DNA from: an uncultured Candidatus Saccharibacteria bacterium
GTDB taxonomy: Bacteria > Patescibacteriota > Saccharimonadia > Saccharimonadales > CAIOMD01
Assembly: GCA_963716565.1 (NCBI GenBank)
Contig: OY970318.1
Location: 385,934 to 449,933 of the forward strand
Length of the DNA stretch: 64,000 nt
Reading direction: 5' to 3'
In this document: positions 35,772-58,500 of the stretch, piece by piece
How positions within the stretch are numbered: position 1 is the stretch's first letter
How the letters are laid out: every line of letters starts with the position of its first letter
Program-made: the position numbers and the translations under genes
The notes under the pieces: generated by a model
Told to the model about the DNA's origin: nothing
The model's input: only the letters and a program-made list of their open reading frames with translations
The model's database searches: none

Positions 35772-38700
35772 CTACTGAAGAGTTATCAAGATCCAAACAA
35801 GATTGTTGGCGTCTTTAGTACTAGTAGCTTTACCTAGTAAGGAGCCAGCACTTGGAGTAACTGAAACTGTGGCTATGCCTTCTTGATTACCGGCTATTAT
35901 CATGTCGCCACCAGCAACGGTTGTAAATCTATCTACCTGCACTTGCACATTACCACCTATGGCTACCCCTACTTCGTCACCCTCTGCAAAAGCCTCTTCT
36001 ACAATTACGCCTATAACCTTGGTATCACCTTCCGCCTCGGTGGTAGTTATATAGCCGTCTCTGGTATTGTCTATTACTACCACGCTACCGGCGGCAATTG
36101 GTTTGCTGGCATAGAACTTCTTAGTAATGGCCTGTCTGGTATTCACCTTGGCAGCTAATTGCAGGTCGCTACTAACACTCAAGTTAGCCACCTGAACATT
36201 ACCCGTTACGGTTAGGTTACCGGTGATAGTAGTTAGATTAAGATCAGAGTTGTATTGTAGATTGCTGCTTAGAGTAGCCACTCTGCTACTTAGTTCTTCT
36301 ATGGTTTGTTGTTGTTGTTGAATAGCGGTAGCTAAGTATGGGGTTAGACCAGCGTAAGAGATAGACTTAATGCCCTGGGCGTCGGTATAGACTAAGTCTG
36401 GGAAGAGTTGTTCGTACTCTTGAGCGATGAAGCCAACGTGTAAGGTGTCAGTCTCGGCATCGGCTAGCATGTGGTAAGACACTGTTCTAAGGCCTAGTAT
36501 CTGATTTAGGGCATCACCATAGGTTGTGATGTCTTTCTTGAGTCTTTCGTCGGAAGTACAGGTTATACCGCCAGCCGTATTGGGGGTAACCGTACAGGTG
36601 CCACCAGCGTTTTCAAAGCGGGCTACGGCAGTGCCATCGGCTACTGAAGCACTGCCAACATGTAACAGATAGCCTGGGGAGGTGTTGGAGATACCAACGT
36701 TGCCAGCCATAATAGCCATTTTGCCTTGGTCTAAGTTCAGTATCTGCCCAGTTTGGAAGCTAAAACTGCTAATATTATTCTCTTGAACTGCTAGAATATT
36801 TTGACGGATACCAAAGTCGTAAATACGCAGAACGTCCAAAGCCCCGCTATAAATACCGCCATAAACATACATATTATTGTTGTAGACTACGGCAGCATGG
36901 TAATACCTGGTATAGCTACCATCAGTAACACCGGACGACCAAGTATTAGCAGCAAAGTTATAAATCCGCACCGTACCAAAGACTCCGCTGCTATAACCGC
37001 CAAAGACATACATATTATTGTTGTAGACTGCAGCAGAGTGAGCATATCTGCCATAAGTACCGTCTGACGCTCCGGCCGACCAGGCATCAGTTGTAAAGTT
37101 ATAAATACGCAAACTACCATCGTAATTGCCGTCATAAACGTACATTTTATCACCGTAAACCACTGCGGCGTGTCTGTATCTGGTTATCCCTGTATCGGCA
37201 GTCCCGGCCGACCAGCTGCCTGTAGCGAAATCATAGATTCGCATAGTGTCTAGAGCGCTACCGTCAAAACCGCCAAAAACATACATTTTATTGTTGTAGA
37301 CTACGGCAGAATGTTGCAGCCTACCATTACCAGTGTCGGCAGTCCCGGCCGACCAGCTGCCTGTAGCAAAATCATAGATTCGCATAGTGTCTAGGGCGAT
37401 ACTGCCATTACCACCACCATAAACATACATTTTATTGTTGTAGACTACGGCAGAATGGTAGCCCCTGATATTACCTGTATCGGCAGTCCCGGCCGACCAG
37501 CTGCCTGTAGCGAAATCATAAACTCGCAAAGTATCTAAATAGCTGCCACCATTAATTCCACCAAAAACATACATTTTATTGTTGTAGACTACGGCAGAGT
37601 GAGCATATCTGGCATAACTGGTATCTGAGGTACCGGAAGACCAAGTGGCAGTTACGTCATATGTAACATTTTTATTAACTACAAGGGGGTTATTAGTGGA
37701 TGTGGAGTTCAAGCTAGCGCCGGCATCAGCGTTAAGTTTGGCGGCAGTATGTATAGCATTACCTGCCACATCTAAAGCATAGCCTGGCATAGCCGTACCA
37801 ATCCCCACATTCCCGCTACTGTCAATTACCAATCTGTCACCGGTACCTAATCCGGTTGTAGAGATCTTAAATTTATCACTATCACTATCGTCTATTCCCA
37901 TAGTGAATAGATTAGTGCCATCGGTTAGCTCAAAGCCAATCTGGGAGTCGTAATCACCAGCATTGGTATTAGACACTGTTAGTTGGGTTAGAGCTGTGCC
38001 AGTGTTCATTACTTCTAGCTTTTGGTCAGGCGAAGTGTCGCCGATGCCAACGTTACCACCATCGGCCACTCTAAGTACACTTGCCGCGTCGTGCTGAACA
38101 TCAAAATACCCAGTACCGCTAACGTTATAAACCATATTGTAATTACCTTGGGTAATGGTCGTGTTTTCAGAAAGTGTTCCGCCCAATTTTACGTTTGGCG
38201 CAGTTGCCGTTAAGCCGTTGGAAGCTGTTACATCTGGGTTGATGCTCGCCCAGATGGAGCCATCCCAGTACATAAGTTTCTTGGTGTCCTTTTGAACCCT
38301 TACATCGCCTATAGCATTGGAAGAAGTTCCCGTAAAGTAACAGTCCGTGGGTATACCGTAACCACCGGCATTAGACCACGACAATCCATCAGTGCCATAC
38401 TTTGCGTTGCCTCCAGAACTTGATGCTCTTTCCAAAAAGATTCTATCACCACTTATATATGCCGTGACTAACCAATATGTAGTACTTTGGGTGAGATTAG
38501 CATTCGAAAAGCTATAATAATAAGCATCGCCCGCATTTGGACCAGGAGTTACAGTACTATCGCTAGTTGCCACGAGCGTACCAGGTACACCTCCATTGTT
38601 TGTATATATATAACCCCTTAAAGTTGTAGACGAGGCGTTAGTATTTGACCTACTTTGCCAAAACTGATAAATGCCCATACCATTACCAGTAATGTCCTCC

Positions 38701-41699
38701 GCATGCCAATCAGTAGACGCTGAATAATTGGCATAAAACTGGCTACTCCAGACTCCGCCAACTGAAGCGTACAGACCCAGTACCCCTGGCAGCGCAGCGG
38801 CATTGGCTACAGCAGACTTCCATTGCACGTCCCCAAAGCCACAATTTATGCTGCCCTGTAAACAAACTGTGCCGGTTTCACTGGGCAAAGTAACCGTATA
38901 ATTACTGGCTGAGGTGTTAGCCGTAGCAATAGTAGTAACGCCAGTAGATGTACCTTTCATAGCTAGCATGGAGTTGTCGAAGGTCTTTAGAGCCGTAACG
39001 CTTTGGGCAGTACCTAGTAGCATGTCCCCTACACTCCAGCTGCGGTTAGCACTCAAGTCATAGCTGGTACCGTTAATACTGAGGGTTCGGGAAGTGGGAA
39101 CACCACCTAGGCCACCTAAAGTGACATCTGGGTTAAGAATATCCCAGCTACTATTATTAAAGTACATTATCTTTTTGGTGTCTTGCTGAATGCGAGTGTC
39201 ACCAAGATAAGAGTTAATAACAGCCGATGTGTTCTTATACTGCGGGTTGCGCCAGTAGAACAAACTAAAGCTTGGCGTGCCTTCTGGGTCATAATCGGTA
39301 TCTATGTAAACGGAATCAGCCCCTCCACCATAAGATTGAGCAGTTTCTGCAGAATTGCCATTTCTGTACCATACAAAATAGTACAACACTCCGTTTGTTA
39401 AGTTTAGGTTATCAAATTGCGCATAATACGTAGCGTCAGCAGTTATATTAACTGTGACATAACTGACACCGGCAAGTCTTGTAGTAGGCGCCCCTGCACT
39501 ACTTTGAAATACATAAACTTTAAAGCTGTCGTTATTCCTAGCCCTAATATAACTTCTGTACGTACCCAGTCCCTGACCCGTTATAGGGTAAGCATTTGCA
39601 CTAGCTACGCCCCATGCATCAACAGCTTCGCCCCAAGCTTTTGAATTAATTATATTTTCTGTATTGGTTGGCAACGCCGCCGCATTAGCTACAGCCGCCT
39701 TCCATTGCACGTCCCCAAAACCACAATTTATGCTGCCCTGCAGACAAACCGTACCAGCTTCACTAGGCAGAGTAATCGTGTAGTTGCTAGCTGATGTATT
39801 GGCGGTAGCAATAGTAGTAACGCCAGTGGAAGTACCTTTCATGGCTAACATGGAGCTGTCGAAGGTCTTTAGAGCCGTAACGCTTTGGGCAGTACCCAGT
39901 AGCATGTCCCCTACGCTCCAGCTGCGGTTAGCACTCAAGTCATAACTGGTACCGTTGATGCTGAGGGTTCGGGAGGTGGGAACACTACTGTCACCAGGGC
40001 AGGTTCCCCAACTAGGCGCGGCTCCAGTAGTGCCAATTAGACATTGGCCAGTCGCACCAGCGGCTGTAGCTTGGATAGCGCTAGTAGTGTTACCGTACAG
40101 AACGCCGTATTGAGCGAAGGTAGCGGCACCAGTACCACCGTTAACTACGTCTACGGTAGCTACGGTACCAATTACTCCAGCCGCCGTGTTAGTGACTATG
40201 CCAGCAGTAGATAGGTTGTTAACCGTTAGGCTACTAGCCGTTAGGCCACCATTGAAGGCGGAAGCTGTAGAAGTATTAGCCCCTCTACCAGTAACGTCAG
40301 CTAGGTCGTCGGCTTCGGCAGTCAGGTAGCTGCCAGCTGGTTGTTTGTTATTGAAGATATTCCAATCGGTGTCGCTTAAAGCACCAGTGGTAGCAGCCGA
40401 AGCTAGAGCTAAGCTGAGTTGTTGGGTGCTTAAGCCCAGTCCGTTAGCGGTACCTAGGGTGACGGCACTATGTAAGTCGCTAGTTAAAGCTACTACGCCA
40501 GTAGCGGCTGGTAGGGTTAGAGTGTAGTTGTTAGCTGAGGTGTTAGCCGTAGCAATAGTAGTAACGCCAGTGGAAGTACCTTTCATGGCTAACATAGAGT
40601 TGTCGAAGGTCTTGAGAGCGGTAACGCTTTGGGCAGTACCAAGTAGCATATCCCCTACACTCCAGCTGCGGTTAGCACTCAAGTCATAGCTGGTACCGTT
40701 AATACTGAGGGTTCGGGAAGTGGGAACACCACCTAGGCCACCAAGTGAAAGGGCTGACCAACTAGGAATGTTAGTGTTAATACCATCGCCTATGGAAGTT
40801 AGAACGTAAGTATCGGTGGTAGTGTTGCCGCCTAATCTAGTTGGTGTGCCAGCTAGGCCGCCGTAGATGAGGTCGCCCAGGGTGGACATAGGGTTGGTCA
40901 TGCCGCCACCGCCAGCCAAAGCAAAGTCGCTAGCTTCATGGCCGTCTAGCAAATCAGCATTAAGATTAGTGACTTTGTAGTTAGAATCTACCCCGAATGG
41001 AGCTGATGAACCAGTGGCACCACCATTGAAAGCCGGGATGCCAGTGACGACTTCGTTCTGGTTGAGGTTGAAGTAGTTAGCCTTGGCTGTTGACCAACTG
41101 GGATCGGTTTCGTTAGTTAGAAAGCCCGATACATTGACGGTTGGGATATTGATGTCTGGGATATTGATGACGTCACCACTGTTGCCGGCTGTAACGATCA
41201 TCTGGTATTCATCGCCATCGTAGAAGTACAGCTGGTTGGTTTGGTTGTCGACGTAGATTTGGCCAATGACAGGGTTAGCTGGAGCTTCACTGGGAGTGAC
41301 TACTACTGAGCCGTTAACTCGAAGATTACCATTGATGTCTAGTTGGCTGATTTGGCCTAGGGCGGTGGCGAGGTCGGTATTTAATCTACTCAATGATAGC
41401 GATGCTAAAGTATAGGCTTCATCATTGTTGGTATTCTGAGGCTCATAACTATTATCCATTCGATTAATAGTTATAGCTAGAAGAATAATTAACAGGCCGC
41501 CTAGCAAACTAGAAACGACAACAAAGAATCCAGGTTTACGAATTTTGGGGCGATAACCAAAAAAGGACTTTAGTGGAGTGGGCGTTGCCGGCGTAAGAAC
41601 TGAGCTGTTTTCTAGCACACTGGGCTGGGGCACAACAATGCCGTCTGACATGGGACTGATGGTTGGTGGAGTTGGGGCTGGTAGGGTGTCTGGGTTCAT
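35772..41699 (-). CDS. giant fibre protein G1 (1975 aa): N-terminal TM anchor, tail-fibre-like repeats, Kelch beta-propeller, S74 chaperone domain, unique C-terminal tail
   Basis: Pro/Thr-rich N-terminus (MNPDTLPAPTPPTISPMSDGIVVPQPSVLENS) followed by one TM helix (FFVVVSSLLGGLLIILLAITI). Tail-fibre motifs IYVDNQTNQLYFYDG and NADLLDGHEASDFA. Three ~250-aa repeats (..VPTSRTLSINGTSYDLSANRSWSVGDMLLGTAQSVTALKTFDNSMLAMKG..TLPAATG..). Six Kelch-type blades (..AVVYNNKMYVFGG..). Then SDERLKKDITTYGDALNQILGLRTVSYHM..HVGFIAQEYEQLFPDLV. Confidence 0.8.
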   Translation of the reverse strand: MNPDTLPAPTPPTISPMSDGIVVPQPSVLENSSVLTPATPTPLKSFFGYRPKIRKPGFFVVVSSLLGGLLIILLAITINRMDNSYEPQNTNNDEAYTLASLSLSRLNTDLATALGQISQLDINGNLRVNGSVVVTPSEAPANPVIGQIYVDNQTNQLYFYDGDEYQMIVTAGNSGDVINIPDINIPTVNVSGFLTNETDPSWSTAKANYFNLNQNEVVTGIPAFNGGATGSSAPFGVDSNYKVTNLNADLLDGHEASDFALAGGGGMTNPMSTLGDLIYGGLAGTPTRLGGNTTTDTYVLTSIGDGINTNIPSWSALSLGGLGGVPTSRTLSINGTSYDLSANRSWSVGDMLLGTAQSVTALKTFDNSMLAMKGTSTGVTTIATANTSANNYTLTLPAATGVVALTSDLHSAVTLGTANGLGLSTQQLSLALASAATTGALSDTDWNIFNNKQPAGSYLTAEADDLADVTGRGANTSTASAFNGGLTASSLTVNNLSTAGIVTNTAAGVIGTVATVDVVNGGTGAATFAQYGVLYGNTTSAIQATAAGATGQCLIGTTGAAPSWGTCPGDSSVPTSRTLSINGTSYDLSANRSWSVGDMLLGTAQSVTALKTFDSSMLAMKGTSTGVTTIATANTSASNYTITLPSEAGTVCLQGSINCGFGDVQWKAAVANAAALPTNTENIINSKAWGEAVDAWGVASANAYPITGQGLGTYRSYIRARNNDSFKVYVFQSSAGAPTTRLAGVSYVTVNITADATYYAQFDNLNLTNGVLYYFVWYRNGNSAETAQSYGGGADSVYIDTDYDPEGTPSFSLFYWRNPQYKNTSAVINSYLGDTRIQQDTKKIMYFNNSSWDILNPDVTLGGLGGVPTSRTLSINGTSYDLSANRSWSVGDMLLGTAQSVTALKTFDNSMLAMKGTSTGVTTIATANTSASNYTVTLPSETGTVCLQGSINCGFGDVQWKSAVANAAALPGVLGLYASVGGVWSSQFYANYSASTDWHAEDITGNGMGIYQFWQSRSNTNASSTTLRGYIYTNNGGVPGTLVATSDSTVTPGPNAGDAYYYSFSNANLTQSTTYWLVTAYISGDRIFLERASSSGGNAKYGTDGLSWSNAGGYGIPTDCYFTGTSSNAIGDVRVQKDTKKLMYWDGSIWASINPDVTASNGLTATAPNVKLGGTLSENTTITQGNYNMVYNVSGTGYFDVQHDAASVLRVADGGNVGIGDTSPDQKLEVMNTGTALTQLTVSNTNAGDYDSQIGFELTDGTNLFTMGIDDSDSDKFKISTTGLGTGDRLVIDSSGNVGIGTAMPGYALDVAGNAIHTAAKLNADAGASLNSTSTNNPLVVNKNVTYDVTATWSSGTSDTSYARYAHSAVVYNNKMYVFGGINGGSYLDTLRVYDFATGSWSAGTADTGNIRGYHSAVVYNNKMYVYGGGNGSIALDTMRIYDFATGSWSAGTADTGNGRLQHSAVVYNNKMYVFGGFDGSALDTMRIYDFATGSWSAGTADTGITRYRHAAVVYGDKMYVYDGNYDGSLRIYNFTTDAWSAGASDGTYGRYAHSAAVYNNNMYVFGGYSSGVFGTVRIYNFAANTWSSGVTDGSYTRYYHAAVVYNNNMYVYGGIYSGALDVLRIYDFGIRQNILAVQENNISSFSFQTGQILNLDQGKMAIMAGNVGISNTSPGYLLHVGSASVADGTAVARFENAGGTCTVTPNTAGGITCTSDERLKKDITTYGDALNQILGLRTVSYHMLADAETDTLHVGFIAQEYEQLFPDLVYTDAQGIKSISYAGLTPYLATAIQQQQQTIEELSSRVATLSSNLQYNSDLNLTTITGNLTVTGNVQVANLSVSSDLQLAAKVNTRQAITKKFYASKPIAAGSVVVIDNTRDGYITTTEAEGDTKVIGVIVEEAFAEGDEVGVAIGGNVQVQVDRFTTVAGGDMIIAGNQEGIATVSVTPSAGSLLGKATSTKDANNLVWILITLQ
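36264..36554 (-). other. peptidase S74 intramolecular-chaperone autoproteolysis domain (variant A) of G1
   Basis: S-x4-K dyad (SDERLK) followed by the conserved HVGFIAQE...FPELV-type block and a QQQQQ coiled segment. Confidence 0.6.
36790..37650 (-). other. six-bladed Kelch-type beta-propeller in G1
   Basis: Six tandem ~48-aa units, each Y(A/R)RY.H(S/A)AVVY(N/G)(N/D)KMYV(F/Y)GG....LR(I/V)Y(D/N)F(A/T)T..WS(A/S)G. Confidence 0.6.
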
Positions 41700-41723: not shown

Positions 41724-44700
41724 TTATTCAAAAACAAAGTAATTAAATTTATACACTGCCTGCTCTAGCGGAGATTGTTTTAGGTAAATGAAGAACTTAT
41801 CTTGAGTAGCGTCTGCGGAATAACGCAAACCAGCTGCTTCTGCATTGCTAGGAGTTAGGATTACTTTTGGATTCTTATTGAATTGCTTATTAAATACCAA
41901 TTCTGCAAATGCCTCATTAACCGCCGTACCCTCCCCCGTTGTAACGGTAATCGTTCCGCCTGTATCATTGCCCATCACTTCAGTTATAGCTCCCTCTCCA
42001 GCGGCGATACCTGGAGTAACGGTTGGCGTATCACCAGCCGAGATAATGTGACCGTTTACAGTAATATTGCCCACACTTAGATTGTCTTTAACTACTACTG
42101 AGCCTTCAAAGATAGCTTGGTCGGTAACGGTTAGACTAGCTACGTTAACTGTATTAACTTGTAAGTGATTTAGCTCAACATCACCGGAGGCGCTTAATAA
42201 GCTCTGAACCGTGGCTAGACCTTCTGATACTAATGATATTTCGGTATTTAAATCATCTATCTGACTAGTGTTTACAGCAATTTCTGCCTGTTGTTCTTGG
42301 ATGCCCTTAATAACTATCGGAATAAGACCTTCATACTTGATGTTATTTATCTCTCCATTTTTCCAGCCGACTATTTCTGGGAATAGTTCGTTTACTTCTT
42401 CGGCAATTAGTCCGTAGTCGTGTATCCCGCCATCGGCAGCCAAAGTATTGCTAGACGCCTTCCAGTCAAAACTGACCGGTCTTAACTGATCTATGGCCGA
42501 CAAGGCACTATCTAGATTTTGAACGTTTTCTTTGTACTTGATAGACGACAACGAGCAACTGGCGCCACGGGTTATTTCGTAGTTAGTGGTTTCCCAGCAC
42601 ATGTAATAACCACTCGAGCCACTGGGTAGATAGTCCATGAAGTAGTGAGGGTCAGGACTTCCCGAGTCAAATTCCATCATCGGGGTGGCAAGATCCTCTG
42701 GGAATATACTAAATAACGTGCCACCCTTCCATAGCTGGAATGAATGATTGCCGGTTCCGGCCGGGCCGAATTGCATTTGGGCATTAGTGTCATCAATAAA
42801 TATACTGCCCTGAGTACTAAGCCCAGCAGTGGCAGACAGATAGCCATAAATTGTTGCAGGGCCATTAACTACCAGATAGTCATTCATGGTTGCAGTACCA
42901 TTAACGACCAAGTCGTTGCCTACGGTTGTGGTGGTTTCGCCAACGGTGAGAAGTGGGGTGCCAAAAGCATCTACTACTTCTAGAACACCTTTAACGCGTA
43001 AAGCATTACTTGAATAATCACCTATGATTGTTGATGCAAATTCAGCTGATGGGTCGCTAGTTGCAGCAGCAGGACCGCCAGCGATAGCCGTGGGGTCACT
43101 AGTGCTAGCTGAAGGACTACTAGTACTAGCCGAGGGATCGCTGACGGTGGCAGTTGGGCTGCCACAATAAAGACCACAGCCAACGATATCGCCTTGAGAA
43201 TCGAGCTTAGCTAAGAAGATATTGTAGTTATAGTTGTTGTCAAAACTATCAGTGCCACCCGTAATTGCATAACCACCATCGGCAGTTTGAATTATATAAT
43301 AAGTCGTTTCGTATCCGCCGCCGCCAAAGGTTGTATCCCAAGAAAGATTGCCACTGCCATCAAACTTAGCTATATAGGAGTCGCCGCTAGTATTATAAGT
43401 AACACCCGTAACGGCAAATCCAAACGCGCCGCCACCATCATCAGTCTGCGTCAAAGAGTACCCTTCATCATAGTCTCCGATTCCTCCGTCCCAAGTTTTA
43501 TCCCAAGAAATGTTACCACTGCCGTCGAACTTGGCTATAAACATATCTCCATCGCTATCTTCTAATTCGGTATAGCCAGTTATGGCGTAGCCGCCATCAG
43601 CAGCCTGAACGACTTGATACCCATAATCGAATCCAGAACCTCCCCAGATGGTACTCCAAGAAAGATTGCCACTACCATCGAACTTGGCTATGTAGGCTTC
43701 TTCATCACCGCTGCCATAACTATCGGTTTCGCCAGTTATGGCATAGCCACTATCAGCAGTCTGGATTATTGAGGCGCTATCATCATATTCGGTACCGCCC
43801 CAAATTAGGTCCCAAGAAAGATTGCCACCACCATCGTATTTAGCAATGAATGCATCACAATTTACACTATAACTGCAAGTATCGCCAGTGAGTGCATATC
43901 CGCCGTCAGCGGTTTGAACTATCGAATCACCACCATCATACTCGGTACCACCCCAAAGTACATCCCAAGAAAGATTGCCGCTGCTGTCGTATTTAGCAAC
44001 GAACGCATCATAATAACCACTGCCGTAACTTCTGGTATAACCACTTACTACGTAACCACCGTCAGCAGTTTGAACTATTGATTGACCAATATCGCTGTTT
44101 GCTCCGCCCCAAGTCTTAGCCCAAGATAAATTAAGATCACTGTCATATTTAAGTATGACCATGTCTTCGCTACCGCTGCCATAGCTGCTGGTGTAACCAG
44201 TTACTGCATAGCCACCGTCAGCAGTTTGTACCACAGTATGACCATAATCGGCATCATAACTATTGTAATCCCCCCACACCACCACACTACTCATATAACT
44301 ATCAAAGGAATCTTCGTTAGTAACAGTTACTTGCATATTAGTAGTGTCGGCGTTTAGTAGGCCAACGTTAGAGCTGTTCTGGACAACAAAGGCCGAGTTG
44401 GCATCGGACTCAACTGTAGCATTGCCATTTACAAAGGTGTCTTGGTTGAGGTTTATCTGGGTAGCGTTGGTAGTACCAATGTTTAGAGCGGCAGCCGTAT
44501 TGGCGTCTAGCAGCGGAGTTAACAAGCTGGTGCCCAGTATGCCGGTGCCAGATATGTTCATGTGGCCAACTTGTTGGGTGCCGGGAGTGCTCGCTTGCAG
44601 CTCAACATTGCTACCACCACCAGCTCCCTCTAACAAATCCTTATTAATAGTCCCGTTATAAAAGTACAGGTTGGTGCCATTCCACCATAAATCACCACTA

Positions 44701-47700
44701 TTAGGAGCAGCTGGGTTAACACCGCCAGCTGAAGCCGTCACGTTTAATGAAGCCTCTGATGTAGTAGCGGCAGCCACTTGCAAACGAGCCGTTGGGGCAG
44801 CTATTCCTACTCCCACATAACCATTGTTCAATATAGTCATAGCCGTAGTCGCACCGGCGTCGCCGACTTTGAATTGTAAGTTGGCGTTAGTCAGGGTGTT
44901 GCCGCCAGACGTAGTACCTTGTAGAACTAAAGTACCGTTAGCAGCTGTTGAACCGTAGACGGTTGGCGTGGTAGTAGAAGTAGCAAAGACTGGGTTGGCT
45001 ACAGTGCTAATCGTTACGGTGTCAGTAGCTCCGGCTACGGTAGTGATGTTAGTACCTTGAGCTATGGTAATAGTGTCAGTGTCGGTAATAGATTGGGGGG
45101 TACCACTGCTACCGGCTAGGGTTAAGGAAGTTATACCACCGCCGGCGCCAAGGCATGAGCCCCAGCTAGGAGCCGCACTAGTATTGCTGACTAGGCATTG
45201 GCCAGTAGTGCCGGCAGCCGTAGCAGCAACTGCGCTGGTACCGTTACCGTAAAGTACGCCATATTGAGTTAAGGTGGTTGCACCAGTACCGCCCAAACTA
45301 ACACCAACCGTGCTAGTTGTGCCCAGTACACCAGCAGCTGTATTAGTGACTATGCCGGCAGTGTTAAGGGCAGAAAATGTTATTGTTCCAGAACTAGTAA
45401 TGCCAGCAGCTGCAGCAATTTGACCGCTAGTATTTACCTGGAATAAATCGCCGCTACCAACAGTTAGTAAGGCCAAAGGCGAAGCGTCGCCGATGCCCAC
45501 ATTGCCACTGCTGTCTACAACTAGCCTGTCATTAGTTCCCAAACCCGTAGTAGAAATCTTAAATTTATCACTGTCACTATCATCTACGCCGACAGTAAAT
45601 AAATTGGTGCCATCCGCTAGTTCAAAGCCAATCTGAGCATCATAGTCGCCAGCATTAGTATTAGACACCGTAATCTGGGTATTGGCCGCCGTGGCACTCA
45701 TAACTTCTAGTTTTTGGTCGGGCGAAGAATCGCCGATGCCAACATTGCCGCTGGTGCCTATTATCGTCATCCTTTGGGCTATTCCGCTCTCTACTATTGA
45801 GAAACTAGCCCCGCTCGGAGCTGATTCATAGTGCCACTTATTGGCTCCGTTTTCGGCGAAATATTGCATGGCGTACCAGCCTAATGGAGTATCAATTGTA
45901 AAGGCCGCATTTGCCCCAACCGCCGACACCTCTAGCTGGGTGGCCGGTGCCGCCGTCCCTACTCCTACATAACCATTGTTTAGGATGGTCATAGCCGTAG
46001 TGACGCCAGCGTTACCGACTTTGAATTGTAGGTTGGCGTTGGTTAGGGTGTTACCGCCAGACGTAGTACCTTGTAGAACTAAAGTACCGTTAGCAGCTGT
46101 TGAACCGTAAACGGTTGGGGTAGTTGTGGATGTGGCGAAAGTTGGGTTGTCGACAGTGCTAATCGTTACAGTGTCAGTAGCTCCAGCTACGGTAGTGATG
46201 TTAGTACCTTGAGCTATGGTAATAGTGTCAGTGTCGGTAATAGATTGGGGGGTGCCACTGCTACCGGCTAGGGTTAAGGAGTTCATGCCACTGCCACCTA
46301 CTCCACAAGCTCCCCAACTAGGCGCGGCTCCAGTAGTGCCAATTAGACATTGGCCAGTCGCACCAGCGGCTGTAGCTTGGATAGCGCTAGTAGTGTTACC
46401 GTACAGAACGCCGTATTGAGTGAAGGTAGCGGCACCAGTACCACCGTTGGATACATCTACAGTAGCCACTGTACCAATGACCCCAGCTGCGGTGTTAGTG
46501 ACTATCCCAGCAGTAGATAGGCCATTGACGGTTAGGCTACTAGCCGTTAAGCCGCCATTGAAAGCGGAAGCTGTAGAAGTATTAGCCCCTCTACCAGTAA
46601 CGTCAGCTAGGTCGTCGGCTTCGGCAGTCAGGTAGCTGCCAGCTGGTTGTTTGTTATTGAAGATATTCCAATCGGTGTCGCTTAAAGCACCAGTGGTAGC
46701 AGCCGAAGCTAGAGCTAAGCTGAGTTGTTGGGTGCTTAAGCCCAGTCCGTTAGCGGTACCTAGGGTGACGGCACTATGTAAGTCGCTAGTTAAAGCTACT
46801 ACGCCAGTAGCGGCTGGTAGGGTTAGAGCGTAGTTGTTAGCTGAGGTGTTAGCGGTAGCAATAGTAGTAACGCCAGTGGAAGTACCTTTCATGGCTAACA
46901 TAGAGTTGTCGAAGGTCTTGAGAGCGGTAACGCTTTGGGCAGTACCAAGTAGCATATCCCCTACACTCCAGCTGCGGTTAGCACTCAAGTCATAGCTGGT
47001 ACCGTTAATACTGAGGGTTCGGGAAGTGGGAACACCACCTAGGCCACCAAGTGAAAGGGCTGACCAACTAGGAATGTTAGTGTTAATACCATCGCCTATG
47101 GAAGTTAGAACGTAAGTATCGGTGGTAGTGTTGCCGCCTAGTCTAGTTGGTGTGCCAGCTAGGCCGCCGTAGATGAGGTCGCCCAGGGTGGACATAGGGT
47201 TAAACATACTAGCTCCGCCAGCACAGGCTCCCCAAGTGGGAGTGGCGTTAGAACCAGACAACAAACATAGTCCAGCTGTGCCAGTACCGGCTAGTACCTG
47301 CATTTGGGTAGCGTTAGTCCAAACAATACCGCCATTGCTAGCTGTTAGGTTGGCGTTAGTACCGCCATTAGCCAGTGGAACAGTAGCTACCGTACCCAGT
47401 ACACCGGCAGCGGTGTTAGTAACTATGCCGGCGGTAAACAGGTTGTTGACGGTTAGGCTAGTAGTAGTTAGGCCACTAGTGAATGATGGGTTGCCAGTAA
47501 CAGTTTCATTCTGGTTGAGATTGAAGTAGTTATTGCTGGCAGCCGACCAAATAGGATCGGTTTCGGCAGTTAGATAGCCAGACAGGTTGATGTTTGGGAC
47601 ATCAATTACATCACCGCTATTGCCAGTTGTAACGATCATTTGGTATTCATCGCCATCGTAGAAGTACAGCTGGTTGGTTTGGTTGTCGACGTAGATTTGG

Positions 47701-48134
47701 CCAATGCTAGGACTGGTTGGAGCATCGCCGGGAGTGATTACGACTGAACCATTGACCTGGAGGTGGCCGTTAATGTCTAGTCGGCTAATTTGGCCAAGCA
47801 AGGAGTTAAGGTCAATACCAGAACCGTCAAGCGACAAAGACACCAGGGTGTAGGTATCGCCTTGAGCTGTATCCCCTGTTGGGGGCTTTCGTAACTGGCT
47901 GAATATGGCAACTAGAATGATGATTAACAAACAGGTCAGCAAACCATAAACCATCATCCAGGTTCGGCGCTTTTTAGATTGGTAGCCGGGATAAGGTTGT
48001 GATGGGGCTGGTGTTACTGGTGCTACTGGGGAGGTGGTGCTGTTTTCTAGCACGCTGGGCTGGGGCACAACAATGCCGTCTGACATGGGGCTGATGGTTG
48101 GTGGAGTTGGGGTTGGCGTAATGTCTGGGTTCAT
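41724..48134 (-). CDS. giant fibre protein G2 (2136 aa): TM anchor, tail-fibre-like repeats, 7-blade SBBP beta-propeller, S74 chaperone domain (variant B), C-terminal beta module
   Basis: Starts 24 nt upstream of G1. N-terminal ~660 aa are identical to G3. An internal ~1.15-kb duplication (..ITSLTLAGSSGTPQSITDTDTITIAQGTNITTVAGATDTVTISTV..) is present. Seven YDxxGNLSWxxxWGG / QTADGGYAxTG blades. SSIKYKENVQNLDSALSAIDQLRPVSFDWK..YGLIAEEVNELFPEIV. Confidence 0.8.
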   Translation of the reverse strand: MNPDITPTPTPPTISPMSDGIVVPQPSVLENSTTSPVAPVTPAPSQPYPGYQSKKRRTWMMVYGLLTCLLIIILVAIFSQLRKPPTGDTAQGDTYTLVSLSLDGSGIDLNSLLGQISRLDINGHLQVNGSVVITPGDAPTSPSIGQIYVDNQTNQLYFYDGDEYQMIVTTGNSGDVIDVPNINLSGYLTAETDPIWSAASNNYFNLNQNETVTGNPSFTSGLTTTSLTVNNLFTAGIVTNTAAGVLGTVATVPLANGGTNANLTASNGGIVWTNATQMQVLAGTGTAGLCLLSGSNATPTWGACAGGASMFNPMSTLGDLIYGGLAGTPTRLGGNTTTDTYVLTSIGDGINTNIPSWSALSLGGLGGVPTSRTLSINGTSYDLSANRSWSVGDMLLGTAQSVTALKTFDNSMLAMKGTSTGVTTIATANTSANNYALTLPAATGVVALTSDLHSAVTLGTANGLGLSTQQLSLALASAATTGALSDTDWNIFNNKQPAGSYLTAEADDLADVTGRGANTSTASAFNGGLTASSLTVNGLSTAGIVTNTAAGVIGTVATVDVSNGGTGAATFTQYGVLYGNTTSAIQATAAGATGQCLIGTTGAAPSWGACGVGGSGMNSLTLAGSSGTPQSITDTDTITIAQGTNITTVAGATDTVTISTVDNPTFATSTTTPTVYGSTAANGTLVLQGTTSGGNTLTNANLQFKVGNAGVTTAMTILNNGYVGVGTAAPATQLEVSAVGANAAFTIDTPLGWYAMQYFAENGANKWHYESAPSGASFSIVESGIAQRMTIIGTSGNVGIGDSSPDQKLEVMSATAANTQITVSNTNAGDYDAQIGFELADGTNLFTVGVDDSDSDKFKISTTGLGTNDRLVVDSSGNVGIGDASPLALLTVGSGDLFQVNTSGQIAAAAGITSSGTITFSALNTAGIVTNTAAGVLGTTSTVGVSLGGTGATTLTQYGVLYGNGTSAVAATAAGTTGQCLVSNTSAAPSWGSCLGAGGGITSLTLAGSSGTPQSITDTDTITIAQGTNITTVAGATDTVTISTVANPVFATSTTTPTVYGSTAANGTLVLQGTTSGGNTLTNANLQFKVGDAGATTAMTILNNGYVGVGIAAPTARLQVAAATTSEASLNVTASAGGVNPAAPNSGDLWWNGTNLYFYNGTINKDLLEGAGGGSNVELQASTPGTQQVGHMNISGTGILGTSLLTPLLDANTAAALNIGTTNATQINLNQDTFVNGNATVESDANSAFVVQNSSNVGLLNADTTNMQVTVTNEDSFDSYMSSVVVWGDYNSYDADYGHTVVQTADGGYAVTGYTSSYGSGSEDMVILKYDSDLNLSWAKTWGGANSDIGQSIVQTADGGYVVSGYTRSYGSGYYDAFVAKYDSSGNLSWDVLWGGTEYDGGDSIVQTADGGYALTGDTCSYSVNCDAFIAKYDGGGNLSWDLIWGGTEYDDSASIIQTADSGYAITGETDSYGSGDEEAYIAKFDGSGNLSWSTIWGGSGFDYGYQVVQAADGGYAITGYTELEDSDGDMFIAKFDGSGNISWDKTWDGGIGDYDEGYSLTQTDDGGGAFGFAVTGVTYNTSGDSYIAKFDGSGNLSWDTTFGGGGYETTYYIIQTADGGYAITGGTDSFDNNYNYNIFLAKLDSQGDIVGCGLYCGSPTATVSDPSASTSSPSASTSDPTAIAGGPAAATSDPSAEFASTIIGDYSSNALRVKGVLEVVDAFGTPLLTVGETTTTVGNDLVVNGTATMNDYLVVNGPATIYGYLSATAGLSTQGSIFIDDTNAQMQFGPAGTGNHSFQLWKGGTLFSIFPEDLATPMMEFDSGSPDPHYFMDYLPSGSSGYYMCWETTNYEITRGASCSLSSIKYKENVQNLDSALSAIDQLRPVSFDWKASSNTLAADGGIHDYGLIAEEVNELFPEIVGWKNGEINNIKYEGLIPIVIKGIQEQQAEIAVNTSQIDDLNTEISLVSEGLATVQSLLSASGDVELNHLQVNTVNVASLTVTDQAIFEGSVVVKDNLSVGNITVNGHIISAGDTPTVTPGIAAGEGAITEVMGNDTGGTITVTTGEGTAVNEAFAELVFNKQFNKNPKVILTPSNAEAAGLRYSADATQDKFFIYLKQSPLEQAVYKFNYFVFE
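42250..42548 (-). other. peptidase S74 intramolecular-chaperone domain (variant B) of G2; the equivalent in G3 is at ~49087-49385
   Basis: SSIKYK (S-x4-K) followed by ..DYGLIAEEVNELFPEIVGWKNGEINNIKYEGLIPIVIKGIQEQQAEIA. Confidence 0.6.
43165..44270 (-). other. seven-bladed SBBP-type (PF06739-like) beta-propeller of G2
   Basis: Repeats of ..GxSIVQTADGGYAITGYTxSYGSG..DAFIAKYDGSGNLSWDxxWGG.. ending in GDIVGCGLYCGS. Confidence 0.6.
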
Positions 48135-48136
48135 GC

Positions 48137-48325
48137 CTACATTCCCCTCTTAGTTAGGCCTGAGGATAAAGAAGCCCTGCTACCAAAAACCACAAAAAGC
48201 ACCGAACTCATCTTAGCGAGGGTGCACTTAACAATTTGGCTGGTGTTTTTTTGCCTTGTCATACCTTTGGTTTTATTTTTGTTTAGTACGGTTTGTCTTG
48301 ATTTGCTTTTTACTGTTTTGGACAA
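48137..48325 (-). repeat. ~190-bp leader immediately upstream of the G2 ATG, identical to 55118-55306 upstream of G3
   Basis: The identical TTG-initiated 62-codon ORF is called at both sites. The leader ends in AAGAGGGGAATGTAGGC-ATG (GAGGGG Shine-Dalgarno ~9 nt before the ATG). Confidence 0.7.
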
Positions 48326-48335
48326 ACTAAGGCTA

Positions 48336-48364
48336 TTGTGGGCCCACTACCCTCTCAATTCAAG
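48336..48364 (-). promoter_or_regulatory. candidate sigma70-like promoter for G2 (TTGAAT - 17 nt - CACAAT), minus strand; the equivalent for G3 is at 55316-55344 (TTGAAG - 17 nt - CACAAT)
   Basis: The motif and 17-nt spacing are conserved between the two otherwise diverged inter-gene spacers, right at the 5' edge of the identical leader. Confidence 0.25.
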
Positions 48365-48560: not shown

Positions 48561-51500
48561 TTACTCAATTATAAAGTAGTTAAACTCGTACGTAACTTGC
48601 TCTAGCGGCGATTGCTCTATAAGACGTATCAAGAATTTGTCCACTGTTCCGTCGGCGTAGTAAAGCAAATCAGACGTTTCAATATTGCTTGGAGTTAGTA
48701 CTACCCTGGGTTGTCTGCTAAATGGTTTGCTAAAAACAAGCTCCACCAAATCGTTAGTCGTAGTACCCTCCCCCGTTGTAACGGTAATCGTTCCGCCTGT
48801 ATCATTGCCCATCACTTCAGTTATAGCTCCCTCTCCAGCGGCGATACCTGGAGTAACGGTTGGCGTATCACCAGCCGAGATAATGTGACCGTTTACAGTA
48901 ATATTGCCCACACTTAGATTGTCTTTAACTACTACTGAGCCTTCAAAGATAGCTTGGTCGGTAACGGTTAGACTAGCTACGTTAACTGTATTAACTTGTA
49001 AGTGATTTAGCTCAACATCACCGGAGGCGCTTAATAAGCTCTGAACCGTGGCTAGACCTTCTGATACTAATGATATTTCGGTATTTAAATCATCTATCTG
49101 ACTAGTGTTTACAGCAATTTCTGCCTGTTGTTCTTGGATGCCCTTAATAACTATCGGAATAAGACCTTCATACTTGATGTTATTTATCTCTCCATTTTTC
49201 CAGCCGACTATTTCTGGGAATAGTTCGTTTACTTCTTCGGCAATTAGTCCGTAGTCGTGTATCCCGCCATCGGCAGCCAAAGTATTGCTAGACGCCTTCC
49301 AGTCAAAACTGACCGGTCTTAACTGATCTATGGCCGACAAGGCACTATCTAGATTTTGAACGTTTTCTTTGTACTTGATAGACGACAACGAGCAACTGGC
49401 GCCACGGGTTATTTCGTAGTTAGTGGTTTCCCAGCACATGTAATAACCACTCGAGCCACTGGGTACGTGATCCATGTAGTAATGAGGCGTGGGGCTTCCC
49501 GAGTCAAATTCCATCATTGGACTGGCAAGATCTTCTCCGGTTATATTGAATAACGTGCCACCCTTCCATAGCTGGAATGAATGATTGCCGGTTCCGGCCG
49601 GGCCGAATTGCATTTGGGCATTAGTGTTATCAATAAATATACTGCCCTGCGTGCTAGGCCCAGCAGTGGCAGACAGATAGCCATAAATTGTTGCAGGGCC
49701 ATTAACTACCAGATAGTCATTCATGGTTGCAGTACCATTAACGACCAAGTCGTTGCCTACGGTTGTGGTGGTTTCGCCAACGGTGAGGAGTGGAAGGCCT
49801 GGATCGTCTAATGTTGCCATTTCAAACCCCGCCATCATCATACCGCCACCTCCGACCGGAGGTAATCCTGATGCTACTTCTAAGACACCTTTAACACGTA
49901 GCGCATCAATCTGGTAACCGCCTGCGATAGAAACGGAGTAGGCCGATGGGTCACTAGTCGTAGCAGCAGGATTCGCAACTATAGCTGTTTGGCTCGTTGT
50001 GATATACGCTGGGCTATAGGCACTCATGCTGGGGTCGCGAATTGTTACGCTTGGAGTGTAACAATGCGCACCACAACCAACAATATTACCCTGAAAATCG
50101 AATTTGGCTAAAATCATATTAATATTAAGATCAATGGGCTGGCTGTCACCAACAACCATAAAGCCGCCACTAGTAATCTTAACCATATCCCATCCTATGC
50201 CCCAATCGTATGGGAGGCCCGTAGTTACAAAGTTTTCTACCCACAAGAAATTGCCGCTGCTATCAAATTTGGCTAGCGACAGCTCGTAATCAGAGGTAGA
50301 ATTCAGCATGGTGCCCGCTATAACATAGCCACCATCGGCAGTTTGAACAATTGCATTGCTTTCGTCGATGTCGTTATAGGGACTGCTTAAAGTCCTATCC
50401 CACATCAGATTGCCACTGCTATCAAATTTAGCTATGAACATGTCATCGTCAGCGCCATATACATCATCGTTTACATCTGTTGTGCCGGTAATAGCATAGC
50501 CCCCATCAGCCGTTTCAATTATGGAACTACCGTATTCGTACGTATATCCTCCGCTGTCCCACTGCCTGGATAGCAAAAGATTGCCACTGGCATCAATCTT
50601 CATAAAAAACATGGCCCAGCCACCGCCACTACCATCGCCGCTACCCGTGATTAAATAACCACCGTCAGAAGTCTGAGCCATCTTTGTTTTATAGCCAAAA
50701 CTCAGATCACTATCACCGTACGTTTTAGTCCACAAAAGATTGCCACTGCTGTCGTAATTAGCCAGAAAATAGTTACTGTAGCTGGTACCGGCATAAAAGC
50801 TATTAGTTTGACCACCAACCATATAATCACCGTCGACAGTTTCAAAAACACTAAAGCCCCTTTCTTGATGCTGGTCACCATCGCCAGCCCATATTGCATC
50901 CCATAACAAATTACCACTACCATCATATTTAGCAATAAACATATCTTCACAATTGCCAGGGGAGTAGGAACTACAAGTAGTAACTTCAAAACTTCCGCTC
51001 TCTCCGGTTATTACGTAACCGCCGTCACTAGTTTGTATTATAGAATACCCTATATCTGATCTCGTACCACCCCAAGTTCTATCCCATTGCAGATTTAAGT
51101 TACTATCATATTTGGCTATAAGCGCATTATTAGAATCAGGATAGCCCGCAGCAAAATATTCTGTATAACCGGTAACGGCGTAACCGCCGTCGGCAGTTTG
51201 AACAACCGAGTGACCTCTTTCGCTTTTAAAGCCATCGTATACCCTATCTCCCCACACCACCACACTACTCATATAACTATCAAAGGAATCTTCGTTAGTA
51301 ACAGTTACTTGCATATTAGTAGTGTCGGCGTTTAGTAGGCCAACGTTAGAGCTGTTCTGGACAACAAAGGCCGAGTTGGCATCGGACTCAACTGTAGCAT
51401 TGCCATTTACAAAGGTGTCTTGGTTGAGGTTTATCTGGGTAGCGTTGGTAGTACCAATGTTTAGAGCGGCAGCCGTATTGGCGTCTAGCAGCGGAGTTAA

Positions 51501-55115: not shown

Positions 55116-55117
55116 GC

Positions 55118-55306
55118 CTACATTCCCCTCTTAGTTAGGCCTGAGGATAAAGAAGCCCTGCTACCAAAAACCACAAAAAGCACCGAACTCATCTTAGCGA
55201 GGGTGCACTTAACAATTTGGCTGGTGTTTTTTTGCCTTGTCATACCTTTGGTTTTATTTTTGTTTAGTACGGTTTGTCTTGATTTGCTTTTTACTGTTTT
55301 GGACAA
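55118..55306 (-). repeat. second copy of the ~190-bp leader (upstream of G3)
   Basis: Identical to 48137-48325. Confidence 0.7.
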
Positions 55307-55539
55307 ACTAAGGCTATTGTGGGCCCACTACCTCTGAACTTCAAGACATAAAATGTAAAAAAAGTATTCATTCGAAGCTTGGTAAAATACGGTTGTCTCA
55401 CAGTACAAATAGTAGTCATTAATACTACAGTTAAGACAGGGGGTTGCGCTATGCCCCATCTTTATAACTAGAAATATGTTGTAATTACCAATACAGCTGC
55501 TAGCGCTACTCAATACTTATCCACAACTAAAATTTTATT

Positions 55540-58500
55540 TTATTCAATTACTACGTAATCAAAGATGTAGGTAGTATTTTCTTGTGGCAATTGTGTGAGG
55601 TTAATAGTAAAGCCGTCTGATGAAGCACCTCTAAAGATGTTCAATTCGGCGGCATTGGCATCACCTGCCGTTAATATAACTCTTGGCTGCTTGCCAAATG
55701 GTCTATTAAATATCAACTCTACCAATTTATCGGCCAATACATTCTTGCCCGTAGTAATTGTTATGGTTCCGCTGGTGTCATTGCCTAGTACTTCGGTTAC
55801 GGCTCCTTCGCCGGCGGCGACACCAGCTACTATTGTAGGCGTCTCACCAGCGGAGATGATATGCCCATTAACACTCAAGTTAGCCACCTGAACATTACCC
55901 GTTACGGTTAAGTTACCGGTGATAGTAGTTAGATTAAGATCAGAGTTGTATTGTAGATTGCTGCTTAGAGTAGCCACTCTGCTACTTAGTTCTTCTATGG
56001 TTTGTTGTTGTTGTTGAATAGCGGTAGCTAAGTATGGGGTTAGACCAGCGTAAGAGATAGACTTAATGCCCTGGGCGTCGGTATAGACTAAGTCTGGGAA
56101 GAGTTGTTCGTACTCTTGAGCGATGAAGCCAACGTGTAAGGTGTCAGTCTCGGCATCGGCTAGCATGTGGTAAGACACTGTTCTAAGGCCTAGTATCTGA
56201 TTTAGGGCATCACCATAGGTTGTGATGTCTTTCTTGAGTCTTTCGTCGGAAGTACAGGTTATACCGCCAGCCGTATTGGGGGTAACCGTACAGGTGCCAC
56301 CAGCGTTTTCAAAGCGGGCTACGGCAGTGCCATCGGCTACTGAAGCACTGCCAACATGTAACAGATAGCCTGGGGAGGTGTTGGAGATACCCAGATTACC
56401 GGCAGAATTAACGCGAAGTCGTTCTGCGTTATTTGAATATATTGCCGTATACGGTGATCCGCTGTTTGTGCTTACATAAACTCCGCCATATATCGTGCTA
56501 AGACCACTATCATACGCAAGCCAACTAGACGTTCCCGTAGATGATATCACTGCAAGATAGCTCGCATTTCTATTAACACTTTCAACCACAACTGTTGCGT
56601 TAGAAGCAACGTCTCCTGTGTTTGCAGTATTATAGACGTGCAATGAACGCCCTAACGTTGTTATTGGGCTGCCTGTTCCTATCCCCATGTTTCCGCTACT
56701 ATCAATCACCAGCCTGTCATTAGTGCCTAATCCCGTAGTAGAGATCTTGAACTTATCACTATCACTGTCGTCTACACCCATAGTAAATAGGTTCGTGCCG
56801 TCAGTTAGCTCAAAGCCAATTTGGCTATCGTAATCACCAGCGTTAGTATTAGATACTGTTATCTGAGTTAAGGCCGTGCCAGTGTTCATTACTTCTAGCT
56901 TTTGGTCAGGAGAGATGTCGCCGATGCCAAGGTAACCAGCAGTAGTCACCCTAAAGCCTACATTCCACGACGACACTGTTGAGCCAGCGGCTACGCCTGA
57001 GCTATACAAAAGACTAAAGTAATCGCTATTTTTTTGAAGTTGGTAGTTAGAACCAGCATCAGAACTAATCCAGTTTGTACCGTTAAAATACGAATCGAAC
57101 GCCATAGCCATGTTGTCATGCGACTGATTAAGCTGTTGATAAAGCGGATAGGTGTCGGCGGATGTGAATATCTTAATATGAGGTCCAGCTGCTGCACTTG
57201 AGTCTGTACCAGAAAGCGTCAATTTACTATCCGGGCTACTTGCCCCAATACCAATATTACCAGCGAAGTAGTTATTGTTAGCTGAGCTATTGTAAATGCC
57301 AAAGCTGCCGCTTGGTGCCGTTGATGTGCCCATTAACAAATACGTGTTGTTGGTCGCGCCAGCAAGCGAATTAATATTTATGCCAACTTTATTGGTGTTA
57401 GCTTGTACGCCATCAATATAAATTCCCTTCCCAGTCGTCACCGTGCCAGCAACAGTTCCTTGATAAATGTACAGCGGTACTAGTTCGGTGGTAGCCGTAC
57501 TAGCACTAGTGTTAGTGTATACTTCTATGCCTCGCATACTAGAAATTGCACCGCCACCAGTTAGATTATTACCAACAATAAAACGAGAGTTTCTAAACAC
57601 TGCTTGATTGGATGCGGAGCTAGCCGTCAAGGTACGGGCTACCACTAATGACATATCTGCTGTATCGGCAGTATTAACTTGAGTCTGCGTAACCCCAATA
57701 CCAACAGTTGGACCAGATGCAGCAACTTGATCGCTAACATTAAGTCTATAAGAAGGGCTAGCAGTGCCTATGCCAACATTACCTAGGTCATTAACTACCA
57801 ATGCAACTGCGTTGCTAGAATCCCTAGCAATTAGAATGGCTGGCAGTTTATCCGGGCTAGCGTCGTTGGCATTATCACTAAAGGCAGTATTTACAGTTAA
57901 ACTGGTGTTAGAAGCAATGGCGGTGACTGTTCTGGTTTCGCCAGTTACGGTTATTCGATCACCAACTACTAGTTCGGTAGTAAATAAGGTACCTACGCCT
58001 GTTACGGTGGTAGAAGCAGTTGGATCAATACTACCCGTTAAAACACTTGTAGCTGCACCAGTAAAACGACCAGATCCAGCAACATCAAGTTTGGTCAAAG
58101 GCGTAGTAGTGTTAACGCCTACATTCCCAGTAAAATAGCTAGTTCCAGTTATTGTGTTAACGTTAAAGTAAGAAGCCCCAAGTCTATTCACCACATTTAG
58201 AATTGTTCCGTCGCTTGCAGTAGACGAAAGCTGCCCTATGGTTACGTCTTTATCATTCACCAGCAAGGCCCCCCTCGTTCTGCCAGCACCAGCTTTCATA
58301 ACTTCGAAAATACCAGTTGGGTTAGTAGTGCCGATGCCCACATTACCGGAACTATCAATTCGCAAGCGCTCTGATTTTGCTGTAGCACCAATTGCAGTGG
58401 TAGAAAATGTAAAATATGAGCCCCTAGCCGACTCGGTGAAGTTTTCTGCTGCAAACATTTTAATTGCGGCAGCAGTTTCCGTTCCCCAAGTTGACACCCC

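Follow-up and report, generated by a model that had tools for sequence, protein, structure and literature searches.

A conserved, possibly lectin-like end domain behind the S74 chaperone of giant Saccharibacteria surface proteins

The S74 domain is usually seen as a disposable, terminal folding aid of phage fibres. What does it do, then, in a cellular protein in which a folded, lectin-like domain lies on the leaving side of the predicted cut? We address this question in a 64,000-nucleotide stretch (hereafter the window) of contig OY970318.1, positions 385,934 to 449,933 of the forward strand, from an uncultured Candidatus Saccharibacteria bacterium (assembly GCA_963716565.1). The window encodes a tandem array of four giant genes, G1 to G4, all on the minus strand, and our main subject is the end of G2, whose last 274 amino acids occupy 41724-42548 (minus strand). 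We identify an S74 domain with an intact catalytic dyad, followed by a stalk and by an unnamed end domain (the tail) with possible kinship to H-type lectins. We propose, with a probability of roughly 0.6, that the S74 domain cleaves and sheds a 25-29 kDa fragment composed of chaperone, stalk and lectin-like domain.

An internal S74 domain with a conserved dyad

The Pfam family Peptidase_S74 (PF13884; gathering cut-off 22 bits) matches all four proteins above its gathering score, with 54.2, 48.5, 48.4 and 52.9 bits for G1 to G4, and its match in G2 (residues 1863-1922) begins precisely at the first residue encoded by the 41724-42548 stretch. A local S74 hidden Markov model (HMM) of 133 positions places the G2 core at residues 1861-1991 (E=2e-39), and PHROG tail-fibre profiles align to this S74 domain, at the level of sequence, through to their C-terminal ends. 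The features of G2 are:

41724..48134, minus strand: G2, a 2136 aa giant surface protein (open reading frame (ORF) list; singleton cluster)
47901..47960, minus strand: N-terminal transmembrane (TM) anchor, W59-F78, read from the sequence, with a Pro-rich segment and KKRR before the helix
42162..42548, minus strand: S74 intramolecular chaperone, residues 1863-1991 including a C-terminal helical segment (Pfam 48.5 bits; local HMM)
42546..42548, minus strand: codon of Ser1863, predicted catalytic residue and cleavage site, aligned with MYRF S587
42531..42533, minus strand: codon of Lys1868, predicted catalytic residue, aligned with MYRF K592
42084..42161, minus strand: beta stalk linker of ~26 aa, residues 1992-2017, 'VNTVNVASLTVTDQAIFEGSVVVKDNLSV', an LNVSG/LTVTG-type repeat
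41727..42083, minus strand: C-terminal tail domain, residues 2018-2136, 119 aa, all-beta and H-type-lectin-like, ending at the stop codon (AlphaFold2 (AF2) model, family profile, weak H_lectin matches)

The original prediction had allowed that the S74 catalytic residues might be absent on careful alignment; the domain appears complete by sequence and both residues are present. In a HMMER alignment to the MYRF ICA chain, G2 S1863/K1868 fall on MYRF S587/K592, which are essential for MYRF cleavage and equivalent to endoNF S911/K916. The Ser-x4-Lys dyad reads S1863-S-I-K-Y-K1868 in G2 and S-D-E-R-L-K in G1 and G4, and it is kept in 51/51 S74 modules upstream of the tail family, drawn from two independent data sets. 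Every tested S74 domain with an intact dyad self-cleaves, including those of the cellular Bd3182 fibre and of MYRF with downstream domains. Characterised S74 domains cleave upon trimerisation, and endoNF releases its chaperone. A further feature of most of the S74 modules in G1-G4 and 47 relatives is a Cys 2-3 residues ahead of the catalytic Ser ('C-[ST]-S-D' or 'C-S-S-S').

That S74 is terminal in phages, the starting point of the original prediction, holds well: the domain stops 8 codons before the stop codon in Arthrobacter phage Kittykat gp17 and matches the very end of the profile in ~20 PHROG tail-fibre families. Phage S74/ICA domains (those of K1F endosialidase endoNF, the T5 L-shaped tail fibre pb1, GA-1 gp12 and actinophage minor tail proteins) belong to the same Pfam family, carry the same Ser-x4-Lys dyad and, like the S74 domains of G2-G4, sit directly behind a fibre segment. 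They lie at the extreme C-terminus, whereas the S74 domains of G1-G4 are followed by 111-145 further residues (~145 in G2 and G3, ~111 in G4 and ~135 in G1), which form a stalk and a folded domain in G2-G4. The extension was first put at ~110 aa; a conserved domain does follow S74 in G2, G3 and G4, and the real length in G2 is ~145 aa once the stalk is counted with the tail. The four proteins also differ from phage fibres in being cellular, ~2,000 aa long and membrane-anchored. In their S74 part they share 32-41% identity with minor tail proteins from phages of Arthrobacter and Streptomyces, and none of the 362 phage records that match this part covers the tail. The closest phage relatives of the S74 part comprise 145 records from Arthrobacter and 139 from Streptomyces phages; both are phages of Actinomycetota, the phylum hosting cultivated Saccharibacteria; this closeness may only mirror the over-representation of actinophages in the database.

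An internal S74 domain has a precedent outside phages. In MYRF and MrfA the ICA domain is internal, a functional part lies downstream, and cleavage separates two functional pieces. The catalytic residues of MYRF and G2-G4 align and the domain is internal in both, but in MYRF the downstream part is the membrane anchor and the N-terminal part is released, whereas G2-G4 have an N-terminal anchor and a soluble, all-beta downstream part; the polarity of release would therefore be opposite to that of MYRF. A second cellular comparison is offered by the mosaic adhesive trimer (MAT) fibres of Bdellovibrio, itself a bacterium living on other bacteria; these fibres are phage-like and mosaic and end in a self-cleaving S74 domain or in lectin, TNF-like or beta-sandwich tips. 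We liken G1-G4 to them by architecture. The N-terminus of MAT fibres consists of a signal peptide and a conserved ~130-aa beta-rich domain, whereas that of G1-G4 consists of a Pro-rich segment and a TM anchor.

The anchor determines what a cut would separate. The N-termini of G1-G4 each carry a Pro-rich segment, a Lys/Arg cluster and a single hydrophobic helix, and by the positive-inside rule the G2 helix is a predicted N-in/C-out signal anchor, with the C-terminus distal and the bulk of the protein outside the cell. The 274 residues from Ser1863 of G2 onwards show no hydrophobic segment, and the only TM segment found is the N-terminal one. Because the anchor is N-terminal, cleavage would sever chaperone, stalk and tail from the cell-bound fibre. 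The predicted C-terminal fragments of 29.3 (G2), 29.4 (G3), 25.3 (G4) and 27.6 kDa (G1) agree with the ~25-30 kDa first estimated to leave with the chaperone, the computed range being 25-29 kDa.

A large domain family at the extreme C-terminus

The tail motif described at the outset is found in G2, G3 and G4 (NGHIISAG.., GNDTxGTITxTTG, P(K/R)V(I/V)LT and Y.F(N/D)Y...E). The AF2 model of the tail, a monomer built from a 45-sequence alignment, is confidently all-beta, with a predicted local distance difference test (pLDDT) value of 94.1 and a predicted template modelling score (pTM) of 0.83. A chance low-complexity Gly/Thr stretch is ruled out by this confident fold together with the size of the family. 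A profile of the tail matches the window proteins to their last residue (G2, E=3.7e-47; G3, 4.3e-47; G4, 1.9e-49). Searched exhaustively against 1.84 billion cluster representatives (50% identity clusters), it matches 2,925 of them at E<=1e-3 and 985 at E<=1e-10; all 150 listed among the 2,925 matches reach the last residues of their proteins, which span 121-5,567 aa. A scan of one-genome-per-species contigs found 118 stretches encoding a tail relative. Of these, the 80 best come almost exclusively from metagenome-assembled genomes of Saccharibacteria/Saccharimonadia, and in nearly all of their 81 tail-bearing ORFs the tail ends 0-3 residues from the stop codon. In every family member the tail is preceded by a repetitive segment of the LNVSG/LTVTG type. 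The tail is thus a large unnamed domain family, centred on Saccharibacteria and always at the extreme C-terminus.

The family is absent from 50,697 GenBank phage records (tblastn), and a pattern scan of IMG/VR found no tail relative. No NCBIfam model matches the tail, the tail profile has no match among PDB sequences, and PHROGs searched with the tail alone gave a single weak match to phrog_36859, of unknown function (E=0.002). The original prediction allowed that the extension might prove to be a common, characterised beta-helix cap; common it is, and it is neither characterised nor a beta-helix cap.

What lies directly upstream of the stalk was counted in tail proteins for which 330 aa or more of upstream sequence was available, namely 94 cluster representatives and 55 genome loci. 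A full S74 domain occupies this position in 25/94 representatives and 15/55 loci, a ~150-aa domain with an invariant D-x-A-E motif in 39/94 and 23/55, and neither domain in 30/94 and 17/55. The shares across the family are ~27% with S74, ~41% with the second domain, which resembles cement and Peptidase_G2 domains, and ~31% with neither, and this last share rules out the notion that the tail always stands behind a self-cleaving chaperone. The D-x-A-E domain ('NNSDLAEAY...' and '...ALSGRVPVKV..EGG.I..GD.IT.SS.PG...KAT' in relatives P0033, P0046, P0047, P0064, P0070 and others) gives recurrent sub-threshold matches to XM1_gp53 minor capsid, Phage_cement_2 and Peptidase_G2. Peptidase_G2, the IMC autoproteolytic domain, covers the motif region in 5/16 members (best 21.7 bits, below the cut-off of 25), and the D-x-A-E domain, which takes the place of S74, may represent another kind of self-cleaving chaperone.

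Nearest to the window the arrangement is more uniform. The 11 closest relatives of the window tails are S74-linked in all 8 classifiable cases, which indicates that S74, stalk and tail are inherited as a cassette; this cassette is stable and recurrent. At the other end of the range are minimal members of 260-330 aa that lack a chaperone: their N-terminus is cytoplasmic, a single TM helix follows, and a beta-helical stalk carries the tail (L017, L050, L080, L076, L012, L062, L074 and L030). The stalk of these short members gives sub-threshold Bactofilin matches in 3/3, and the tail is their sole extracellular globular domain. Given that position, and given that ~73% of the family is without S74, an autonomous displayed domain, presumably for binding, is favoured over the folding or export determinant first suggested.

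Several observations bear on what such a domain might bind. H_lectin (PF09458) is the only Pfam family that recurs for the tail, with matches in 26/44 members (best E=6.5e-5), all below the gathering score. H-type lectins such as Helix pomatia agglutinin and discoidin are all-beta, as the tail is, but the matches reach only its C-terminal half, and the N-terminal half (NGHI...GNDTxGTITxTTG) has no H_lectin counterpart. In a library of viral predicted structures, two uncharacterised 'uncultured Caudovirales' proteins match the tail model with template modelling (TM) scores of 0.82-0.86 (E~1e-8), and several phage H-type-lectin/receptor-binding proteins match it weakly. The tail is an autonomous all-beta end domain, probably related to H-type lectins at a distance and in elaborated form. 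It resembles a binding tip, to judge from the recurrence of H_lectin, the phage fibre and receptor-binding tips among its structural neighbours, and a difference between G2 and G3 that is confined to the last ~65 aa.

C-terminal cassettes of the giant genes

The remaining genes of the array and their C-terminal modules are:

35772-41699, minus strand: G1, 1975 aa (ORF list)
36180..36554, minus strand: G1 S74 chaperone, residues 1716-1840, Ser1716/Lys1721 (Pfam and local HMM)
35775..36137, minus strand: G1 alternative C-terminal domain, residues ~1855-1975, Phage_cement_2/DUF2190-like, outside the tail family (Pfam PF09956, hhalign)
48561-55115, minus strand: G3, 2184 aa (ORF list)
48999..49385, minus strand: G3 S74 chaperone, residues 1911-2039, Ser1911/Lys1916 (Pfam and local HMM)
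48564..48920, minus strand: G3 tail domain, residues 2066-2184, first half as in G2, last ~65 aa an anciently diverged cassette
55540-62478, minus strand: G4, 2312 aa (ORF list)
55876..56250, minus strand: G4 S74 chaperone, residues 2077-2201, Ser2077/Lys2082 (Pfam and local HMM), 94% identical to the G1 S74
55543..55896, minus strand: G4 tail domain, residues 2195-2312, 54-55% identical to the G2 tail

The tails of G2 and G3 had been taken for identical copies. Their genes share ~640 nt of 100% DNA identity (~41920-42610 and ~48760-49450) that begins ~60 nt upstream of the catalytic Ser codon and spans S74, the helical segment, the stalk and the first half of the tail, but the identity breaks off sharply after '...TTGEGT', in mid-tail. 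Across the last ~65 codons nucleotide identity is only 60-67% and amino-acid identity ~55%; the 114-aa tail core as a whole is 75% identical. This break points to a recent gene conversion that halted mid-domain, or to the exchange of half-domain cassettes. Over the last ~65 codons the proportion of synonymous differences (pS) is saturated at 0.88 and that of nonsynonymous differences (pN) is 0.21, which indicates old alternative cassettes adjoining a recent conversion tract. Positive selection behind the difference is ruled out, pN being far below the saturated pS.

As described originally, G4 carries a diverged copy of the tail and G1 a different end. The G1 end domain matches Pfam Phage_cement_2 (PF09956) at the cut-off (E=5e-5, 24 bits). 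The S74 cores pair G1 with G4 (94%) and G2 with G3, while the tail is common to G2, G3 and G4, so the modules have been shuffled. At the C-terminus, the cassettes that change places in this way are S74, the cement-like domain and the tail. G1 shares both S74 and stalk with G4 (94% identical) and runs into a different ~120-aa end domain after '...ANLSV'. Its end domain is also weakly like the pre-stalk domain of S74-less relatives (hhalign E=5.7e-4, probability 29%). G1 alone has a Kelch beta-propeller in its fibre body (36981-37721, minus strand, residues ~1327-1573; Pfam E=1e-40 to 1e-48), and no Pfam domain besides S74 was found in G2-G4.

The window is bacterial chromosome and not phage. 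The neighbours of G1-G4 are ParA, ParB, a LytR-CpsA-Psr protein, RF1, PrmC, ribosomal protein S2, EF-Ts and a polyprenyl synthetase; ParA/ParB, RF1, PrmC, S2 and EF-Ts, together with the 799-kb length of the contig (799,209 bp), rule out a prophage origin. The giant proteins and S2 are recorded on this one contig, and every named near relative of its RF1 (68-72% identity) belongs to Candidatus Saccharibacteria, Saccharimonadales or Patescibacteria. The ~215 nt immediately 5' of the G2 and G3 start codons (48135-48350 and 55116-55330) are 100% identical; within them, a GC-rich hairpin with a run of T behind it ('GTGCACC...GGTGCTTTTTGTGGTTTTTGG') could represent a terminator or attenuator in the leader. 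All three intergenic regions have a 'TGTGGATAA...ATTACAAC' motif just past the upstream stop codon. Elsewhere, two tail-bearing genes lie 10-15 kb apart on the Saccharibacteria contigs CAZMHM010000003.1 (L006/L052) and CAWIAU010000001.1 (L032/L039), so tandem arrays like G2-G4 recur.

Fate of the severed fragment

Beyond the domain boundaries, family membership, dyad conservation, recurrent architecture and N-terminal anchor described above, we infer trimerisation, cleavage, release and carbohydrate binding, in an order that would be as follows. Three chains would be exported, their N-terminal anchors remaining in the membrane. Their C-terminal S74 domains would then trimerise via the helical segment and serve as the nucleus on which the upstream fibre folds, whereupon the Ser-Lys dyad (S1863/K1868 in G2) would cut the chain. 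The mature fibre (residues 1-1862) would stay on the cell, and a trimeric 29 kDa chaperone-stalk-lectin piece would be severed, either to diffuse away or to remain attached only non-covalently. Since the tail is the displayed head in S74-less relatives, this fragment would be a trimeric lectin-like factor, shed or non-covalently held. Its lectin-like heads could bind glycans, either in solution or while loosely held, and the likely target is the cell surface of an actinobacterial host.

Several points weigh against this proposal. Shedding a domain that S74-less relatives use as a displayed head looks wasteful, and in MAT fibres tips replace S74, the two being alternatives, whereas G2-G4 have S74, stalk and tip in tandem. 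The lectin assignment has its own difficulties: Foldseek of the tail model against the PDB gave nothing significant (best E=0.14), and in its weak list of pyocin and phage fibre tips Helix pomatia agglutinin (2ce6) reaches a TM score of only 0.34-0.40. The G2 tail scores 16.4-16.8 bits against H_lectin (E=0.008-0.01), below the cut-off of 24, and G4 has no match.

The strongest alternative is that the tail is kept. Cleavage would be suppressed or very slow, or the fragments would hold together tightly without a covalent bond; the tail would be the distal adhesive head of the mature fibre and S74 an in-line node for trimerisation and folding. Such an arrangement would suit the short TM-stalk-tail relatives, whose only extracellular head is the tail, the ~31% of the family with no chaperone-like domain upstream, and the N-terminal anchor, which puts the tail at the distal end. 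The ancient, conserved alternative C-terminal half-cassettes of G2 and G3 would fit specificity modules. A purely structural node, however, would have no need of a Ser-Lys dyad kept in every one of the 51 modules, and the behaviour of characterised S74 domains, which cut once they trimerise and in endoNF free the chaperone, runs the other way. We regard a retained tip as unlikely, if a serious competitor. In a variant of it, the chain is cleaved and the non-covalent junction could serve as a breakaway joint.

We consider it quite improbable that stalk and tail are only a folding helper, an additional C-terminal clamp for trimerisation and registration that leaves the translocon last, aligns the three S74 domains and is then discarded with no later function. 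The extreme C-terminal position in all members would agree with such a role, as would the ~68% of the family in which the tail comes just after S74 or a cement/Peptidase_G2-like domain, and in MAT fibres beta-sandwich tips can stand in for S74. Yet short proteins with the tail as sole extracellular globular domain point to a function of its own, S74 alone is enough for folding in phage and Bdellovibrio fibres, and the diverged tail halves are under purifying selection (pN 0.21 against saturated pS). Least credible, to the point of being very improbable, is a C-terminal sorting or anchoring signal, a secretion or wall-attachment domain like the C-terminal domains of the type IX secretion system (T9SS) or wall-binding modules, removed or used during display: the tail is strictly terminal with a conserved ending (Y.F.Y...(E/Q)-stop) and resembles known C-terminal sorting domains in size and beta-sandwich nature, but a membrane anchor is already present at the N-terminus, the tail has no visible hydrophobic segment or sortase-type motif and no match to a Pfam or NCBIfam sorting domain, and its structural neighbours are phage fibre tips and not sorting domains.

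Our preferred reading therefore remains cleavage with loss of the chaperone-stalk-tail fragment. A more far-reaching form of it is that S74 autoproteolysis serves as a device for shedding or secretion, by which a folded fibre cuts off a trimeric lectin for host glycans, or as a non-covalent breakaway joint of the kind known from SEA/GAIN autoproteolysis. We put this forward as a doubtful, speculative idea. If it is true, the 'disposable' chaperone would gain a cargo and a second role as an effector in the interaction between episymbiont and host.

The literature yielded no paper on S74 proteins in Saccharibacteria, nor one pairing 'H-type lectin' with 'intramolecular chaperone'. While an internal S74 domain is known from MYRF, an S74 chaperone with a C-terminal cargo domain is new here, as is a large, previously undescribed domain family of Saccharibacteria surface proteins. 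The tail family, which comprises at least 2,925 clusters at 50% identity and lacks both a Pfam or NCBIfam model and a solved structure, merits a name irrespective of the fate of the fragment. The cassette occurs in giant surface proteins of Saccharibacteria, ultra-small episymbionts that must recognise and hold host bacteria. If the fragment is shed or non-covalently held, this would be a new use of the S74 autoprotease, and it would provide a concrete candidate for the factor by which host surfaces are recognised, in a phylum for which few have been described.

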